From the sequence record MN022785.1: a stretch of DNA of 64,000 nt, one strand, 5' to 3'. The stretch comes from Escherichia phage VEc20. The position numbers and the translations under genes were made by a program. A model generated the notes under the pieces. It was not told the DNA's origin. It searched no databases and saw only the letters and a program-made list of their open reading frames with translations. Within the stretch, counting starts at the first letter, position 1; each line of letters starts with the position of its first letter. Positions 44,858 through 55,218 of the stretch are shown piece by piece.

Positions 44858-44865
44858 TATAAATA
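44858..44865 (+). promoter_or_regulatory. late promoter TATAAATA for gene 34
   Basis: Exact motif 35 nt upstream of the gene 34 ATG. Confidence 0.6.
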
Positions 44866-44899: not shown

Positions 44900-47800
44900 A
44901 TGGCCGAGATTAAAAGAAAGTTCAGAGCAGAAGATGGTCTGGACGCAGGTGGCGATAAAATAATCAACGTAGCTTTAGCTGATCGTACCGTAGGAACTGA
45001 CGGTGTTAACGTTGATTACTTAATTCAAGAAAACACAGTTCAGCAATATGATCCAACTCGTGGATATTTAAAAGATTTTGTAATCATTTATAATAATCGT
45101 TTTTGGGCAGCAACGGATAATATTCCAAAACCTGCTGGAAATTTTAATAGAATTCGTTGGAAAGCATTACGTACTGATGCCGTATATACAACCGTATCAT
45201 CTGGACCATATCAATTAAAATCCGGAGAAGCAATTTCAGTAGATACATCAGTTGGCAATGACATTGAGTTTACTTTACCAGCTTCTCCGCTTGATGGAGA
45301 AACCGTAATAATTCAAGATATCGGTGGAAAACCTGGCATAAATCAGGTTAAAATAAATTCTTCAAATCAGAGTATTGTCAATTTTAGAGGTGAACAGGTA
45401 CGTTCAGTTTTAATGACTCATCCAAAGTCACAGATGGTATTCATTTTTAATAATCGTTTGTGGCAAATGTATATTGCTGATTATAGCAGAGAAGCTGCGA
45501 TTGTTACTCCATCGACTGCATATCAAGCACAATCTAATGATTTTATCGTACGTAGATTTACTTCTGCCGCGCCGATTAATGTTAAGCTCCCAAGATTTGC
45601 CAATCATGGAGATATCATTAATTTCGTTGATTTAGATAAATTAAATCCACTTTATCATACAATTGTTACGACATATGATGAAACGACGTCAGTGCAAGAA
45701 GTTGGAACTCATTCCATTGAAGGCCGTACATCGATTGACGGTTTCTTGATGTTTGATGATAATGAGAAATTGTGGAGATTGTTTGACGGGGATAGTAATG
45801 CGCGTTTACGCATTATAACAACTAATTCTAATATTCGTCCAAATGAAGAAGTCATGGTATTTGGCGCGAATAATGGAACAACCCAAACAATTGAACTTCA
45901 GCTTCCAACCGATATTTCCATTGGTGATACTGTTAAAATTTCCATGAATTACATGAGAAAAGGACAAACAGTTAAAATCAAAGCTGCCGGTGAAGATAAA
46001 ATTGCTTCTTCAGTTCAATTGCTGCAATTCCCAAAACGCTCAGAATATCCGCCTGAAGCTGAATGGGTAACAGTTCAAGAATTAGTTTTTAATGGTGAAA
46101 CTAATTATGTACCAGTTTTGCAACTTGCTTATATAGAAGATTCTAATGGAAAATACTGGGTTGTACAGCAAAACGTTCCGACAGTTGAAAGAGTCGATTC
46201 TTTAAATAATTCTACTAGAGCAAGATTAGGCGTAATTGCTTTAGCTACGCAAGCTCAAGCAAATGTCGATTTAGAAAATTCTCCACAAAAAGAATTAGCA
46301 ATTACTCCAGAAACGTTAGCTAATCGTACTGCTACTGAAACTCGCAGAGGTATTGCAAGAATAGCAACTACTGCTCAAGTGAATCAGAACACCACATTCT
46401 CTTTTGCAGATGACCTTATCATCACTCCTAAAAAGCTGAATGAAAGAACTGCTACAGAAACTCGTAGAGGTGTCGCTGAAATTGCTACGCAGCAGGAAAC
46501 TAATACAGGTACTGATGATACTACAATCATCACTCCTAAAAAGCTTCAAGCTCGTCAAGGTTCTGAATCATTATCTGGTATTGTAACTTTTGTATCTACC
46601 GCAGAAGCTACTCCAGCTTCTAGCCGTGAATTAAATGGTACGAATGTTTATAATAAAAACACTAATAATTTAGTTGTTTCACCTAAAGCTTTGGATCAGT
46701 ATAAAGCTACTCCAACGCAACAAGGCGCAGTAATTTTAGCAGTTGAAAGTGAAGTAATTGCTGGACAAAGCCAAGAAGGATGGGCAAATGCGGTTGTAAC
46801 GCCAGAAACGTTACATAAAAAGACATCAACTGATGCAAGAATTGGTTTAATTGAAATTGCTACACAAAGCGAAGTTAATACAGGAACTGATTATACTCGT
46901 GCAGTCACTCCTAAAACTTTAAATGACCGTAGAGCAACTGAAAGTTTAAGTGGTATAGCTGAAATTGCTACACAGGTTGAATTCGACGCAGGCGTCGACG
47001 ATACTCGTATCTCTACACCATTAAAAATTAAAACCAGATTTAATAGTACTGATCGTACTTCTGTTGTTGCTCTATCTGGATTAGTTGAATCAGGAACTCT
47101 CTGGGACCATTATACCCTTAATATTCTTGAAGCAAATGAGACACAGCGTGGTACACTTCGTGTAGCTACACAAGTTGAAGCTGCTGCAGGAACATTAGAT
47201 AATGTTTTGATAACTCCTAAAAAGCTTTTAGGTACTAAATCTACTGAAGCACAGGAAGGTGTCATTAAAGTTGCAACTCAGTCTGAAACTGTGGCTGGAA
47301 CGTCAGCAAATACTGCTGTATCTCCAAAAAATTTAAAATGGATTGTGCAGAGTGAACCTACTTGGGCAGCTACTACTGCAATAAGAGGTTTTGTTAAAAC
47401 TTCATCTGGTTCAATTACATTCGTTGGTAATGATACGGTAGGTTCAACACAGCCATTAGAATCATATGAGAAAAATGGTTATGCAGTATCACCATATGAA
47501 TTAAATCGCGTATTAGCAAATTATTTGCCATTAAAAGCAAAAGCTGTAGATAGTAATTTATTAGATGGTCTAGATTCGCTCCAGTTCATTCGTAGGGACA
47601 TTGCACAAACAGTTAATGGTTCACTAACCTTAACCCAACAAACGAATCTGAGTGCCCCTCTTGTATCATCTAGTACTGCTACATTCGGTGGATCAGTTTC
47701 AGCAAATAGTACATTAACTATTTCTAATACTGGAACGGCAACTCGTCTGATTTTTGAGAAAGGACCTCAAACTGGAACAAACCCAGCTCAAACGATGACA

Positions 47801-48769
47801 GTCAGAGTGTGGGGAAATCAATTTAGTGGGGAATCAGACACAACACGTTCTACCGTATTTGAAGTTAGTGATGAAACGTCTAGTCATTTTTATTCTCAGC
47901 GTAATAAAGCTGGAAATATAACATTTAATATCAACGGTACAGTAACACCGATAAATGTTAATGCTTCAGGAACATTGAATGCAAATGGTGTAGCAACATT
48001 TGGTAATTCAGTCACTGCAACTGGTGAAATTATTTCTCGAAGCGCAAATGCTTTCCGTGCTATTAACGGAAATTATGGTTTCATTGTTCGCAATGATGGG
48101 TCAGTAACGAATTTTATGCTTACTGCATCGGGTGATCAAACTGGCGTATTTAATGGATTGCGTCCTTTAGCTATTAATAATGCATCTGGCCAAGTAACGA
48201 TTGGTGAAAGCTTAATCATTGCAAAAGGTGCTACTATAAGTTCAGGCGGTTTAACTGTTAACTCGAGAATTCGTTCTCAGGGTACTAAAACCTCTGATTT
48301 ATATACCCGTGCGCCAACATCTGATACAGTAGGATTCTGGTCAATCGATATTAATGATTCAGCCACTTATAACCAGTTCCCGGGTTATTTTAAAATGGTT
48401 GAAAAAACTAATGAAGTGACTGGACTTCCATACTTAGAACGTGGTGAAGAAGTTAAATCTCCTGGTACATTGACTCAGTTTGGTAACACACTTGATTCAC
48501 TTTACCAAGATTGGATTACTTATCCAACGACCCCAGAAGCACGTACCACTCGCTGGACACGTACATGGCAGAAAACCAAAAACTCTTGGTCAAGTTTTGT
48601 TCAGGTATTTGACGGAGGTAACCCTCCTCAACCTTCAGATATAGGAGCGATCCCATCTGATAATGGAATAATAGGTAATCTTACTATTCGCGATTTCTTG
48701 CGAATTGGTAATGTTCGCATTATTCCTGACCCAGTGAATAAAACTGTTAAATTTGAGTGGATTGAATAA
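44900..48769 (+). CDS. 34: long tail fibre proximal subunit gp34
   Basis: 1289-aa ORF, T4 gp34 length, with repetitive beta-rich segments. Confidence 0.9.
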   Translation: MAEIKRKFRAEDGLDAGGDKIINVALADRTVGTDGVNVDYLIQENTVQQYDPTRGYLKDFVIIYNNRFWAATDNIPKPAGNFNRIRWKALRTDAVYTTVSSGPYQLKSGEAISVDTSVGNDIEFTLPASPLDGETVIIQDIGGKPGINQVKINSSNQSIVNFRGEQVRSVLMTHPKSQMVFIFNNRLWQMYIADYSREAAIVTPSTAYQAQSNDFIVRRFTSAAPINVKLPRFANHGDIINFVDLDKLNPLYHTIVTTYDETTSVQEVGTHSIEGRTSIDGFLMFDDNEKLWRLFDGDSNARLRIITTNSNIRPNEEVMVFGANNGTTQTIELQLPTDISIGDTVKISMNYMRKGQTVKIKAAGEDKIASSVQLLQFPKRSEYPPEAEWVTVQELVFNGETNYVPVLQLAYIEDSNGKYWVVQQNVPTVERVDSLNNSTRARLGVIALATQAQANVDLENSPQKELAITPETLANRTATETRRGIARIATTAQVNQNTTFSFADDLIITPKKLNERTATETRRGVAEIATQQETNTGTDDTTIITPKKLQARQGSESLSGIVTFVSTAEATPASSRELNGTNVYNKNTNNLVVSPKALDQYKATPTQQGAVILAVESEVIAGQSQEGWANAVVTPETLHKKTSTDARIGLIEIATQSEVNTGTDYTRAVTPKTLNDRRATESLSGIAEIATQVEFDAGVDDTRISTPLKIKTRFNSTDRTSVVALSGLVESGTLWDHYTLNILEANETQRGTLRVATQVEAAAGTLDNVLITPKKLLGTKSTEAQEGVIKVATQSETVAGTSANTAVSPKNLKWIVQSEPTWAATTAIRGFVKTSSGSITFVGNDTVGSTQPLESYEKNGYAVSPYELNRVLANYLPLKAKAVDSNLLDGLDSLQFIRRDIAQTVNGSLTLTQQTNLSAPLVSSSTATFGGSVSANSTLTISNTGTATRLIFEKGPQTGTNPAQTMTVRVWGNQFSGESDTTRSTVFEVSDETSSHFYSQRNKAGNITFNINGTVTPINVNASGTLNANGVATFGNSVTATGEIISRSANAFRAINGNYGFIVRNDGSVTNFMLTASGDQTGVFNGLRPLAINNASGQVTIGESLIIAKGATISSGGLTVNSRIRSQGTKTSDLYTRAPTSDTVGFWSIDINDSATYNQFPGYFKMVEKTNEVTGLPYLERGEEVKSPGTLTQFGNTLDSLYQDWITYPTTPEARTTRWTRTWQKTKNSWSSFVQVFDGGNPPQPSDIGAIPSDNGIIGNLTIRDFLRIGNVRIIPDPVNKTVKFEWIE

Positions 48770-48777
48770 GAGGTATT

Positions 48778-49893
48778 ATGGAAAAATTTATGGCAGAGTT
48801 TGGACAAGGATATGTCCAAACGCCATTTTTATCGGAAAGCAATTCAGTAAGATATAAAATAAGCATAGCGGGTTCTTGCCCGCTTTCTACTGCGGGGCCA
48901 TATGTTAAATTTCAGGATAATCCCGTTGGAAATCAAACATTTAGTGCAGGTCTTCATTTAAGAGTTTTTGACCCTTCTACGGGAGCATTAGTTGATAGCA
49001 AGTCATATGCTTTTTCTGCTTCAAACAATACAACATCTGCCGCTTTTGTCAGTTTCATGAATTCTTTGTCAAACAATAGACTTGTTGCTATATTAACTAG
49101 CGGAAAGGTTAATTTTCCTCCTGAAGTGGTATCTTGGTTAAGGGGAGCAGGAACTTCAGTTTTTCCATCAGATTCAGTATTGTCAAGATTTGACGTGTCA
49201 TATGCTGCTTTTTATACTTCTTCTAAAAGAGCTATTGCATTAGAGCATGTTAAACTAAGTAATAGAAAAAGCACAGATGATTATCAAACTATTTTAGATG
49301 TTGTATTTGATAGTTTAGAAGACGTCGGAGCTACAGGATTTCCTAAAAGAACATACGAAAGCGTTGAGCAATTTATGTCTGCGGTTGGAGGAACTAATAA
49401 TGAAATTGCGCGATTGCCAACTTCAGCTGCTATAAGTAAACTTTCTGACTACAATTTAATTCCTGGTGATGTTCTTTATCTTAAAGCACAACTATATGCT
49501 GATGCTGATTTACTTGATCTTGGAACTACAAATATATCTATTCGTTTTTATGATGCATCAAATGGATATATTTCCTCGACCCAAGCTGAGTTTACTGGGC
49601 AAGCTGGGTCTTGGGAATTAAAAGAAGATTATGTAGTTGTTCCTGAAAATGCAGTAGGATTTACGATATATGCACAAAGAACTGCCCAAGCAGGTCAAGG
49701 CGGCATGAGAAATTTAAGCTTTTCTGAAGTATCAAGAAATGGCGGCATTTCAAAACCTGCCGAATTTGGCGTCAACGGTATTCGCGTTAATTATGTCTGC
49801 GAATCGGCTTCACCTCCAGATATAATGGTACTTCCTACACAAGCCTCTTCTAAAACTGGCAAAGTGTTTGGGCAAGAATTTAGAGAAGTTTAA
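48778..49893 (+). CDS. 35: long tail fibre hinge protein gp35
   Basis: 371-aa ORF with RBS GAGG. Confidence 0.85.
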   Translation: MEKFMAEFGQGYVQTPFLSESNSVRYKISIAGSCPLSTAGPYVKFQDNPVGNQTFSAGLHLRVFDPSTGALVDSKSYAFSASNNTTSAAFVSFMNSLSNNRLVAILTSGKVNFPPEVVSWLRGAGTSVFPSDSVLSRFDVSYAAFYTSSKRAIALEHVKLSNRKSTDDYQTILDVVFDSLEDVGATGFPKRTYESVEQFMSAVGGTNNEIARLPTSAAISKLSDYNLIPGDVLYLKAQLYADADLLDLGTTNISIRFYDASNGYISSTQAEFTGQAGSWELKEDYVVVPENAVGFTIYAQRTAQAGQGGMRNLSFSEVSRNGGISKPAEFGVNGIRVNYVCESASPPDIMVLPTQASSKTGKVFGQEFREV

Positions 49894-49898
49894 ACTGA

Positions 49899-49925
49899 GG
49901 GAGCCTTCGGGTTCCCTTTTTCTTT
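49899..49925 (+). terminator. intrinsic terminator after gene 35
   Basis: GGGAGCC-TTCG-GGTTCCC followed by TTTTTCTTT. Confidence 0.55.
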
Positions 49926-49932
49926 ATAAATA
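49925..49932 (+). promoter_or_regulatory. late promoter TATAAATA for genes 36-37-38
   Basis: Exact motif 24 nt upstream of the gene 36 ATG. Confidence 0.6.
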
Positions 49933-49955: not shown

Positions 49956-50606
49956 ATGGCTGATTTAAAAGTAGGTTCAACTGTAGGTGGATCTGTCATT
50001 TGGCATCAAGGAAATTTTCCATTGAATTCAGCCGGTGACGATGTACTCTACAAATCATTTAAAATATATTCAGAATATAATAAACCACAGGCAGCTGATA
50101 ACGATTTCGTTTCTAAAGCTAATGGTGGTACTTACACCGGTCCAATTACTATTAATTACGGGGTAAATAGTTATCTTCAATTAAGTAATAATGAAACCCC
50201 CATTCGAATTCGTTCTGGTGGCGGTACCGGTAATACTCTTGTAGTTGGCGGCTCTTCCGGCGGTATTAGTTTTAGACCTGCAGGTAGTGAAATCACTACT
50301 GGACAAATTACTATTACACCAGAAGGTTTGACAACATTTACCAGGGCTGTAACGGCTCCATCGGTAACTGTTACATCTACTCCTTCCGCAGCATCTGATG
50401 TTACTCGTAAAGATTATGTTGATGGAGCAATAAATACTGTTACAGCAAATGCAAACTCTAGGGTATTACGCTCTGGAGACACTATGACAGGAAATTTAAC
50501 TGCGCCAAACCTTTTTTCACAGAATCCTGCATCTCAACCTTCACACGTTCCACGATTTGACCAAATCGTAATTAAGGATTCTGTTCAAGATTTCGGCTAT
50601 TATTAA
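49956..50606 (+). CDS. 36: long tail fibre protein gp36
   Basis: 216-aa ORF between genes 35 and 37. Confidence 0.85.
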
Positions 50607-50614
50607 GAGGACTT

Positions 50615-53600
50615 ATGGCTACTTTAAAACAAATACAATTTAAAAGAAGCAAAACTGCAGGTCAACGTCCTGCTGCTTCAGTATTAGCCGAAGGTGAATT
50701 GGCTATAAACTTAAAAGATAAAACAATTTTCACAAAAGATGACTTAGGTAGTGTTATAGAATTAGGTTTAAAATATGGAGGAACAATTGATGGTTCTTTA
50801 ACTGTTAATGGAAACATAATTGGAAATTTAACAGGTAACGCTGCAACTGCAACGAAATTAAAAACAGCACGAAAAATTAATGGTATATCCTTTGATGGGT
50901 CAAAAGATATCACGCTAACTCCATCTGACATAAATGTCAATAGCACAACGTTTATAAAAAATAACGGCGAATTACCTGTTGATGCTAATTTAGATGAGTA
51001 TGGGCCTGTTGAAGAATATCTTGGAGTTTGGTCGAAAGCAACTTCAACCAACGCTCAACCAGCAAATAAATTTCCAGAAGAAAATGCTGTAGGTGTTCTA
51101 GAAGTATTTGTGGCCGGTCAATTTGCTGGTACTCAGAGATATACAACTAGATACGGAAATGTTTATATTCGTTCCTTGACTGCTACATGGAACGGAGTAA
51201 ACGGTCCGTGGAGTGCGTGGCGAAATATTCAATCTGGTACTCGTCCACTGTCAACAACGATTGATCTTAATGATCTAGGAGGCGCTGAACACCTTGGTTT
51301 GTGGCGAAATAGTTCAAATTCCATTGCTACCTTTGACAGAAATTTCCCAGAAGAAGGATCGTCAGCTCAAGGACTTTTAGAAGTATATGAAGGTGGAAAC
51401 TATTCTCGCACACAGAGATATACGACCAGATTTGGTGTTGTTTATACTCGCTGTCTTGCTGCTGCATGGGATGCATCTGCACCTAAATGGGGACCGTGGC
51501 AACAAGTCGGTAATGTCACACCGGCGACTTTCTATGACGGAGACCTGAATGATTTTAAAGCTCCTGGGTTATATAACATTTTAGGCACTGATGCCGTTAT
51601 TAACTGTCCTACCGGTGAAGGTTTGCCGACTGTTATTGTTGGTTTGCTGGAAGTTAAACAGCGTGCTTCTGGCGGTGCTATTTTCCAAAAATTTACTACT
51701 GCCGGAACGGGTGCAACTACTCGCGATCGTATTTTTGAGCGTGCATATACTGGTGGTGTGTGGGGTGCATGGAACGAAGTATATACATCTTATTCCCTGC
51801 CAATTACTTTGGGTATGGGTGGTATTAAATCTAACTTAGCAGAGTTAGACTGGCAAACATTTGATTTTGTTCCTGGTAGTATGTTTAGCGTTCCTTTGAA
51901 CAAAATAAAGAACATGCCAGCTAATATGGATTGGGGTACGATTGACGGAAACTTAATTATGTTTTCTGTTGGTCCTAGCGAGCACACCAGCACAGGACGT
52001 ACTGTTCAGGTTTGGCGTGGTACTGTATCCCAGACAAACTACCGTTATTTTGTCGTTCGTGTATTCGGTAATTCAGGAAATAGAACTTGCACAGTTCGTC
52101 GCGTTGTTCTTGAAGATGGTCGCCACAAATGGACAGCGCAACAAGATTTTAATGGCGCAGTTAACTTCGGTGCTCCTACCAATTTTAACTCTACTGTTAA
52201 CCTTAATAACACTACCACTTTTAAAACAGAAGTTAAATTTCGCTCATTGAATGCATTCCGTATGTATGGCGGAAAATTTGGTACAATTTTCCGTAATGAT
52301 GGAGAGAGTCTTTATATTCTTTCCACCGACGAAGATGATCAAGATGGAAACTTTAATAAAAATAGACCTTTCCGCTATCAATTAAAAACTGGCGATGTTA
52401 CTTTGGGTGGCACTAGTGGTGCTAACGTTTTAAAATTAAAACGTGATTCTCTCACCGCATTTTTTGGTGGTGATATTAACATGAAAGGCTTGATGACTTT
52501 TGACGCCGGACGTTTAGGATCACGAGATTATTTTAAATTTAACCATTGGGGTGATAGTAATAATGCGCGCGATAACATTATTCAGTTAGAAGACAGCAAA
52601 GGCGTTCATTTTTCCACTGAACGTACTTTAGCGACAGGTGCAATTAAAACTAAATTTTTTGGTGAAACCTTCACTGACGGTACATTATACCTAAATCAGA
52701 TGAATAATAGCTCTGAACGATTCTCTATCAACAATTGGGGAAATTCAGAAGTTGGACGCGCGGCAATCTTAGAAATCAGCGATTCACAAGGTTATCACTT
52801 CTATACGGAACGTAGAACAGATGACAGTTTGGTGTTTGATATATCCGGTGCGTTGACCGTGCGTGGACCTAACGGAATAACCGTCAAAAACTCAACTGGT
52901 GCACGCCATATCTGGTTTAGAGATGATAGCGAAACAGAAAAGGCTGTTATTTGGGTGACCGATGATGGTATTTTACATATACGAAATAATCGTGGGGGTT
53001 CATTTAGTCATCACTTCCAAGGTGCAATGATTAAAGCGGGAGAGCGTGTTCCTTATGCCGGAGATCAAGGGCTTATTCGCGGTGAAGTTTCTGGTGGTGC
53101 ATGGGTAGACTGGCGAGATCGTCCGGCTGGATTGTTGGTAGACTGTCAGGACTCACGAAGTCAAGCATATAACATTTGGAAAGCTACTCATTGGGGCGAA
53201 CAGCACCTTGCGGCGATGGGTGTTCATGCTGGCGGTGGTAATCCTCATGTTGTATTGCATGTGGGTGGGAGTGATTATGCATTTGCATCTAACGGTGATT
53301 TTACTGCTGGTGCTGCTGTATATTGTAACGACGTTTATATTCGTTCTGACCGTCGTCTGAAAAATAATGTTGAAGACTACGAAGAGAATGCGGTGGATAA
53401 GGTAAATAAACTCAAAGTTAAAACCTATGATAAAGTTAAATCTCTTTCTGACCGCGAAGTTATCGGCCATGAGATTGGTATTATCGCACAGGATTTGCAA
53501 GAAGTATTACCGGAAGCTGTTAGCACTTCTAGTGTCGGATCTCAGGATAACCCAGAAGAAATTTTAACAATTTCTAACTCTGCTGTGAACGCGCTTTTAA

Positions 53601-53698
53601 TTAAGGCTATCCAAGAAATGAGCGAAGAAATTAAAGAATTAAAAACGCCTTTCTTCACTAAAATTGCTCGCAAAATTAGTAATTATTTTAAATTCTAA
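50615..53698 (+). CDS. 37: long tail fibre distal subunit gp37 with C-terminal intramolecular-chaperone-like domain
   Basis: 1027-aa ORF; SDRRLK motif about 116 aa from the C-terminus. Confidence 0.9.
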
Positions 53699-53704
53699 CA
53701 ACAA

Positions 53705-53720
53705 GGGGCTTTGCCCCTTT
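53705..53720 (+). other. short GC hairpin between genes 37 and 38
   Basis: GGGGC-TTT-GCCCC followed by TTT; weak terminator or attenuator. Confidence 0.35.
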
Positions 53721-53730
53721 GGAGAAAATT

Positions 53731-54531
53731 ATGGCAGTAGTTGGAGTTCCTGGCTGGATTGGAAGTTCAGCCGTAAATGAAACGGGTCAGCGCTGGATGA
53801 GTCAAGCAGCTGGTCAATTAAGATTGGGTGTTCCTTGCTGGATGAGTCAATTTGCAGGTCGCTCAAGAGAAATTATTCATACACTTGGAGCAGACCATAA
53901 CTTCAATGGTCAATGGTTCCGAGATAGATGTTTTGAGGCCGGTAGTGCACCTATAGTGTTTAATATTACAGGTGATTTAGTATCATATTCTAAAGATGTT
54001 CCTTTATTCTTCATGTACGGGGATACGCCTAATGAATATGTTGTTCTTAATATTCATGGTGGTGTTCATATGTGGGGTCGTGGTGGTAATGGTGGATACA
54101 CTCACTCGGGAGGCGACGGTAACGGTACACAAGGTGGTCATGTTATTCAAAATGATATCGGTGGACGGCTTCGTATTTGGAACTACGGTGTTATAGCTGC
54201 TGGCGGTGGCGGCGGTGGTGGTATTGCATATCGTCCACACTCAGGGGCAAACTGGCAAGATATCGGTGGCGGTGGTGGTCGACCTTTCGGTGGCGCTGGC
54301 GGTGGCGGTTATTCCGGTGGTGCTGCTTCGTATGAAGGTCCGGGTGGTGGTTATGACTATGGTAACGCACACTCCGGCGCTGGTGGTAATGCTGGTGCTG
54401 CTGGTCAGAATGCATGGTCTGACGGCGGTAAAGTTCTTAAAGTTGGTGTTGGTGGTGCGTCTGGTCATGCAGTGTTTGGATCTTCTCCAACTTGGGGTGT
54501 TGTTGGAACAATTTACGGACCAAGAGTATAA
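53731..54531 (+). CDS. 38: receptor-recognising adhesin gp38 (T2-type, glycine-rich motifs)
   Basis: 266 aa from ATG 53731 ([19 protein letters not shown]...) with RBS GGAG; C-terminal half has poly-Gly blocks ([25 protein letters not shown]) separated by short variable segments. Confidence 0.8.
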
Positions 54532-54561: not shown

Positions 54562-55218
54562 ATGGCAGCACCTAGAATATCATTTTCGCCCTCTGATATT
54601 CTGTTGGGTGTTCTAGATCGCTTGTTCAAAGATAACGCTACCGGGAAGGTTCTTGCTTCCCGGGTAGCTGTCGTAATTCTTTTGTTTATAATGGCGATTG
54701 TTTGGTATAGGGGAGATAGTTTCTTTGAGTACTATAAGCAATCAAAGTATGAAACATACCGTGAAATTATTGAAAAGGAAAGAAATGCACGCTTTGAATC
54801 TGTCGCCCTGGAACAACTCCAGATAGTTCATATATCATCTGAGGCAGACTTTAGTGCGGTGTATTCTTTCCGCCCTAAAAACTTAAACTATTTTGTTGAT
54901 ATTATAGCATATGAAGGAAGATTACCTTCAACAATAACTGAAAAATCACTTGGAGGATATCCTGTTGATAAAACTATGGATGAATATACAGTTCATTTAA
55001 ATGGACGTCATTATTATTCCAACTCAAAATTTGCTTTTTTACCAACTAAAAAGCCTACTCCCGAAATAAACTACATGTACAGTTGTCCATATTTTAATTT
55101 GGATAATATCTATGCTGGAACGATAACCATGTACTGGTATAGAAATGATCATATAAGTAATGACCGCCTTGAATCAATATGTGCTCAGGCGGCCAGAATA
55201 TTAGGAAGGGCTAAATAA
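54562..55218 (+). CDS. t: holin T
   Basis: 218-aa ORF, T4 holin length, one N-terminal TMD (VAVVILLFIMAIVWY) and a large periplasmic domain; RBS AAGGAGGG. Confidence 0.9.
   Translation: MAAPRISFSPSDILLGVLDRLFKDNATGKVLASRVAVVILLFIMAIVWYRGDSFFEYYKQSKYETYREIIEKERNARFESVALEQLQIVHISSEADFSAVYSFRPKNLNYFVDIIAYEGRLPSTITEKSLGGYPVDKTMDEYTVHLNGRHYYSNSKFAFLPTKKPTPEINYMYSCPYFNLDNIYAGTITMYWYRNDHISNDRLESICAQAARILGRAK

Follow-up and report, generated by a model that had tools for sequence, protein, structure and literature searches.

The window analysed here, 64,000 nucleotides of the Escherichia phage VEc20 record (MN022785.1), comes from the genome of a T-even (Tequatrovirus-like) phage; over a 24-kb upstream stretch, identity to many Tequatrovirus genomes is 95-97%. 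We identified genes for gp34 (44900-48769), gp35 (48778-49893), gp36 (49956-50606), gp37 (50615-53698, plus strand) and gp38 (53731-54531, plus strand), followed by the holin gene t (54562-55218). The gene asiA is encoded on the minus strand.

Gene 37 encodes the precursor of the distal subunit of the long tail fibre (a single ORF; 1027 aa, 112.9 kDa), and base 53698 is the final base of its TAA stop codon. The protein matches PHROG 1699, and its counterpart in phage RB32 is annotated as 'large distal tail fiber subunit, similar to T6'. Across genes 37 and 38, nucleotide identity to the T6-like phages RB32 and RB33 is 88%. A scan of gp37 and gp38 for NCBIfam families matched none and is uninformative either way. 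Residues 521-587 of gp37 (52175-52375) match Gp34_trimer (PF21446, E 1.5e-13), and this segment is a module common to the proximal and distal fibre subunits. An antisense ORF at 53153-53500 (115 aa, TTG start) has no Pfam match, and we regard it as spurious, since the sense frame is already accounted for in full. In the hinge protein, residues 58-112 of gp35 (48949-49113) unexpectedly match the Pfam family ILEI (interleukin-like EMT inducer / FAM3), with 33.1 bits (E 8e-8; the curated threshold is 27 bits).

T4-type late promoter motifs (TATAAATA) occur at 44858-44865 and 49925-49932, about 30-40 nt upstream of genes 34 and 36, respectively. The total of 11 such motifs in the window is not above chance. 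Our motif search of the window found none directly before gene 37 or gene 38. Given the motif before gene 36 and the lack of one before the two genes downstream, genes 36, 37 and 38 (and t) are probably expressed as one late transcript. Scans for sigma-70 promoters and for terminators around the gene 37-38 region returned no more sites than shuffled sequence. A hairpin (AGGGGC-TTT-GCCCCT, 53704-53718) lies between the stop codon of gene 37 and the ribosome binding site of gene 38. It is not more stable than its shuffles (z = -1.17), has no T-run and was not called as a terminator. The fPS-65 record carries a 'terminator' feature under the match to this region.

The chaperone domain at the C-terminus of gp37

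The last 117 of the 1027 residues of gp37 (residues 911-1027; 53345-53695, plus strand) form a C-terminal intramolecular chaperone domain of the Peptidase_S74 type, identified by Pfam, by a PDB profile search, and by comparison of an AF2 model using Foldseek. The initial annotation had pointed to this part of the protein from the motif SDRRLK, placed about 116 residues before the C-terminus, and had likened it to the self-cleaving chaperone domains of phage fibre and spike proteins. The motif is where it was said to be: it occurs once, at residues 911-916 (53345-53362), with 116 residues following S911. The span given for the domain, 53341-53698, is correct at its end, which is the last base of the stop codon. 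Its start falls 4 nt before the codon for S911 and misses the frame by one base, as the R910 codon begins at 53342. Apart from this small offset, the span runs from the R910/S911 junction to the end of the stop codon.

Pfam family PF13884 (Peptidase_S74, 'Chaperone of endosialidase') matches residues 911-969 when the whole protein is searched (E 2.8e-15, 56.8 bits, with a gathering cut-off of 22 bits). The match covers profile positions 1-57 of 58, and position 1 falls on S911. The initial annotation had proposed searching the last 130 residues with profiles of S74-type chaperones, and this check is clearly positive for the same family (E 2.5e-16, 60.1 bits). In the PDB, the single sequence matches S16 gp37 (6F45_A, E 2e-11, 47.5 bits) and the ICA domain of MyRF. 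Using a profile built from 35 homologues, the PDB matches are 6F45_A (2.9e-18), the tail fibre 8JOV (2.6e-14), the MyRF ICA domain 7DC3 (1e-10) and 3GUD (2e-4), and no others. The segment also matches 40 PHROG tail-fibre families, in each case at the C-terminal end of the family. Homologues of the gp37 C-terminus were found in >1500 phage records, including T-even relatives, T5-like L-shaped fibres, streptococcal PblB and hyaluronidase.

Records from E. coli include stand-alone 'tail fiber domain-containing proteins' of about 135 aa (P0021, P0023) in which the S74 chaperone domain makes up almost the whole protein, and one such protein is encoded on a 5.04-Mb contig. They probably represent remnants of prophages or chaperones encoded as modules of their own.

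The alignment of the 35 homologues, in which overall identity falls to 28%, shows that S911, D912, R914, L915, K916, G955, A958, E967 and V969 are invariant. Thus, gp37 has a serine at the N-terminal edge of the domain and a lysine five residues on, the spacing (S and S+5) of the established Ser-Lys catalytic centre (PMC8326128; PMC3742443). The single-sequence PDB search aligned SDRRLK to SDRRIK of S16 and to (S587A)DLRAK592 of MyRF. Based on this equivalence and on the invariance, we predict that Ser911 and Lys916 are the catalytic dyad, corresponding to the dyads defined in endoNF (S911/K916) and MyRF (S587/K592) (PMC8326128).

The AF2 model covers residues 881-1027 as a monomer only; gp37 itself is trimeric. 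The model has a mean pLDDT of 83 and contains short helices at 926-932 and 958-964, four strands, and then a long C-terminal helix at residues 988-1024 (53576-53686, plus strand; DSSP, model residues 108-144). An alpha/beta fold that ends in a long helix is thus predicted, as in 3GW6, 3GUD and 7DC3. In a Foldseek search of the PDB, E falls below 0.1 for three structures only, 7DC3 (3e-6), 3GUD (5e-3) and 3GW6 (1e-2), each of them an IMC/ICA domain, and the next match is to unrelated PadR regulators (E 0.45). From the structures of MyRF and endoNF (PMC8326128), helix 988-1024 is predicted to form the trimeric coiled coil of the chaperone domain. The motif had been described as followed by a helical acidic segment. 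The residues just after K916 are indeed acidic (5 of 12, with no basic residue), but the domain has a mixed alpha/beta fold and its extreme C-terminus is basic.

We also considered whether SDRRLK might have arisen by chance in a helical C-terminus that is unrelated to these domains. This reading has the shortness of the motif in its favour and nothing else. It was rejected, and we assign it next to no probability, given profile E-values of 1e-15 to 1e-18 over about 60-110 residues, the agreement of the fold, and the >1500 phage records with a homologous C-terminus. The match to self-cleaving fibre and spike chaperones is instead supported by PF13884, the PDB profile, Foldseek and the invariant dyad.

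The domain of gp37 extends past the canonical domain end with a 17-residue tail that is amphipathic, basic and aromatic (residues 1011-1027; 53645-53695, plus strand). The tail has a net charge of +4, and its helical hydrophobic moment (0.64-0.71) is the highest in the domain. The AF2 model carries the helix on through the tail, at lower confidence (pLDDT 70-74). When the 35 C-terminal residues of gp37 were used as a query, 226 phage records covered at least 80% of it, and 225 reached 90% identity or more within the part that matched. The tail is missing in T2 gp37 and in most homologues of the 35-sequence alignment. The standard chaperone mechanism leaves this tail unexplained. It is unlikely that the tail does more than lengthen the coiled coil; conceivable functions of its own include brief contact with a membrane, the recruitment of an assembly factor such as gp57A, and the timing of chaperone release. 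The high conservation of the tail may derive in part from homogenisation of the junction by recombination.

Predicted processing of gp37 and the gp38 adhesin

The strand DVYIR (residues 906-910; 53330-53344, plus strand) directly precedes the dyad motif. By analogy with characterised and aligned relatives, the scissile bond of gp37 is predicted to be R910/S911. A homologous site was predicted in fPS Tequatroviruses, DVYIR/SDGRLKI, by alignment to DLNVS/SDRRIK of S16 (PMC7917993). The site here reads exactly DVYIR/SDRRLKN. Cleavage at this position would convert the 112.9 kDa precursor to a mature gp37 of residues 1-910 (about 99.7 kDa), with DVYIR as its last strand and proposed docking tip for gp38. 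The fragment expected to be released has 117 aa (13.2 kDa), a net charge of -3 and a pI of 5.3.

Gene 38 lies directly 3' of gene 37. The ORF listing begins it at a TTG (53719); however, the ATG at 53731, 33 nt past the gene 37 stop, has GGAG upstream (53721-53724), and translation from it gives MAVVGVPGW..., which matches MAIVGVPGW... of T2 gp38. Thus, the true product is probably the 266 aa protein that starts at 53731. It has the N-terminal attachment domain and glycine-rich C-terminal domain of adhesin-type gp38. We identified matches to the adhesin families PF05268 (E 2.7e-67) and PF21721 (E 3e-20), to PHROG 2056 (E 5e-110), and, over the full length, to the solved adhesins 9V85 (PP01 gp38, E 3e-65) and 6F45_D (S16 gp38, E 5e-43). 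Tryptophans W9, W22 and W37 (numbered from the ATG) are shared with T2 gp38. In S16, the gp37 trimer has pockets at its base into which three tryptophans of gp38 insert (PMC6851490). The CASP13 account (PMC6851490) and the PP01 paper (PMC12892980) describe the docking of gp38 on gp37, with the chaperone domain unmentioned.

The same gene order, 34-35-36-37-38-t, and almost the same gp37 length are found in T4, whose gp37 has about 1026 aa. These features would fit a T4-type arrangement, in which gp37 itself binds the receptor through its C-terminal tip, and gp38 serves only in assembly, as a chaperone that is absent from virions. However, gp38 of VEc20 belongs to the adhesin families over its full length, and the C-terminus of gp37 matches the S74 chaperone domain rather than a receptor-binding needle. 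On these two grounds the pair was not assigned to the T4 type, a reading that we reject as extremely improbable. The earlier suggestion that gp38 acts as a tip adhesin is supported, as the downstream gene is of the T2/S16 type and does not encode a T4-type chaperone.

Residues 911-1027 are very probably an intramolecular chaperone of the endosialidase (Peptidase S74) type that folds the fibre tip and cleaves itself off, after which gp38 docks. By homology, three nascent gp37 chains would be set in register by their chaperone domains, with the long C-terminal helices as a trimeric coiled coil that would nucleate folding of the adjoining beta-helical fibre tip. After correct folding of the trimer, Ser911, activated by Lys916, would cut the R910/S911 bond. 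The 13-kDa chaperones would then depart as a trimer, and mature gp37 (1-910) would end in the DVYIR strand. One gp38 could dock on this exposed tip through its N-terminal attachment domain of three helices and three tryptophans. If gp38 docks in this way, it would therefore be gp38, and not gp37, that forms the receptor-binding tip.

An alternative is that the S74-like domain is never removed and that the mature fibre carries it as a structural cap or adaptor, with gp38 bound there or elsewhere. Cleavage in VEc20 is predicted by homology, and the extra conserved amphipathic tail might hint at a role beyond transient folding. However, both residues of the catalytic dyad are intact and do not vary among the homologues, and the related proteins are reported to be processed. 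In S16, according to PMC7917993 (summarising Dunne 2018), the last 113 residues of gp37 are an intramolecular chaperone that is autocleaved at DLNVS/SDRRIKK, and gp38 docks on the surface that is uncovered. Similarly, PMC3157838 (citing Drexler, Riede & Henning 1986) reports that gp37 of T2 and T6 is proteolytically cleaved at its C-terminus and then capped by gp38. We consider retention of the domain quite unlikely and, by analogy with these phages, infer that gp37 is cleaved in VEc20.

Comparison with RB32 and other known systems

RB32 gp37 is like that of VEc20 in length (1027 aa), in the position of SDRRLK at residue 911 and in its C-terminal tail, and the last 130 residues of the two proteins are 99.2% identical. 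The DNA at 53165-53914, which spans the gp37 tip, chaperone domain, intergenic spacer and gp38 attachment domain, is 98-100% identical between these phages. Identity is lower on both sides, at 68-96% (150-nt blocks) in the gp37 shaft (50765-53164), where blocks drop to 68-76%, and 72-88% in the hypervariable, glycine-rich C-terminal half of gp38 (53915-54531). This divergence in the shaft and the C-terminal half of gp38 points to a different receptor specificity rather than to a different mechanism. The pattern fits modular exchange around a conserved junction, and a mosaic with a conserved lock-and-key junction is known (PMC3157838).

For annotation, mature gp37 should end at R910, with a mass of about 99.7 kDa instead of 112.9 kDa, and the predicted receptor-binding protein of VEc20 is gp38, not gp37. 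Engineering of host range would involve exchange of gp38 or its hypervariable loops, while the matched cassette of gp37 tip, chaperone and gp38 N-terminus is kept. Beyond correct annotation, there is little consequence.

T2 gp37, for which processing is said to have been reported first, has the motif NVYIR/SDIRLK, an S74-type C-terminus, and a downstream gp38 adhesin with the same N-terminal tryptophan pattern as in VEc20. It differs in being 1341 aa long (AP018813), with the motif at residue 1243 and 98 residues after the Ser. It ends ...VKELESKLM, without the 17-residue tail of VEc20.

S16 gp37 and gp38 (6F45) share with VEc20 the S74-type C-terminus and the architecture of gp38. Identity over the gp37 domain is roughly 40%. 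The motif is SDRRIK in S16 and SDRRLK in VEc20, the strand before the site is DLNVS rather than DVYIR, and the chaperone is 113 rather than 117 residues long. The match to the deposited S16 chain (6F45_A) stops at residue 114 of the 130-residue query, before the VEc20 tail starts.

The founding members of the family (MEROPS/Pfam Peptidase S74) are endoNF, the K1F endosialidase (3GW6), and the GA-1 neck appendage IMC (3GUD). These have the Ser-Lys dyad and the same fold, and are known for trimerisation-dependent self-cleavage; the match in S911/K916 numbering is coincidental. Unlike the VEc20 domain, they are carried on a tailspike/sialidase or a neck appendage and not on a long tail fibre, and no separate adhesin caps the cleaved end. 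Identity to VEc20 in structural alignments is about 10-17%. The best structural match to the VEc20 domain is the ICA domain of MyRF (7DC3; Foldseek E 3e-6, TM 0.62-0.66), which has an equivalent dyad. However, MyRF is a eukaryotic membrane-bound transcription factor in which cleavage frees a nuclear fragment and has no part in fibre maturation.

The VEc20 gp37 domain is thus already known, as a textbook member of its family in the context known from T2, T6 and S16. The conserved 17-residue tail is a small addition beyond this known system, in the T6/RB32-type subtype.
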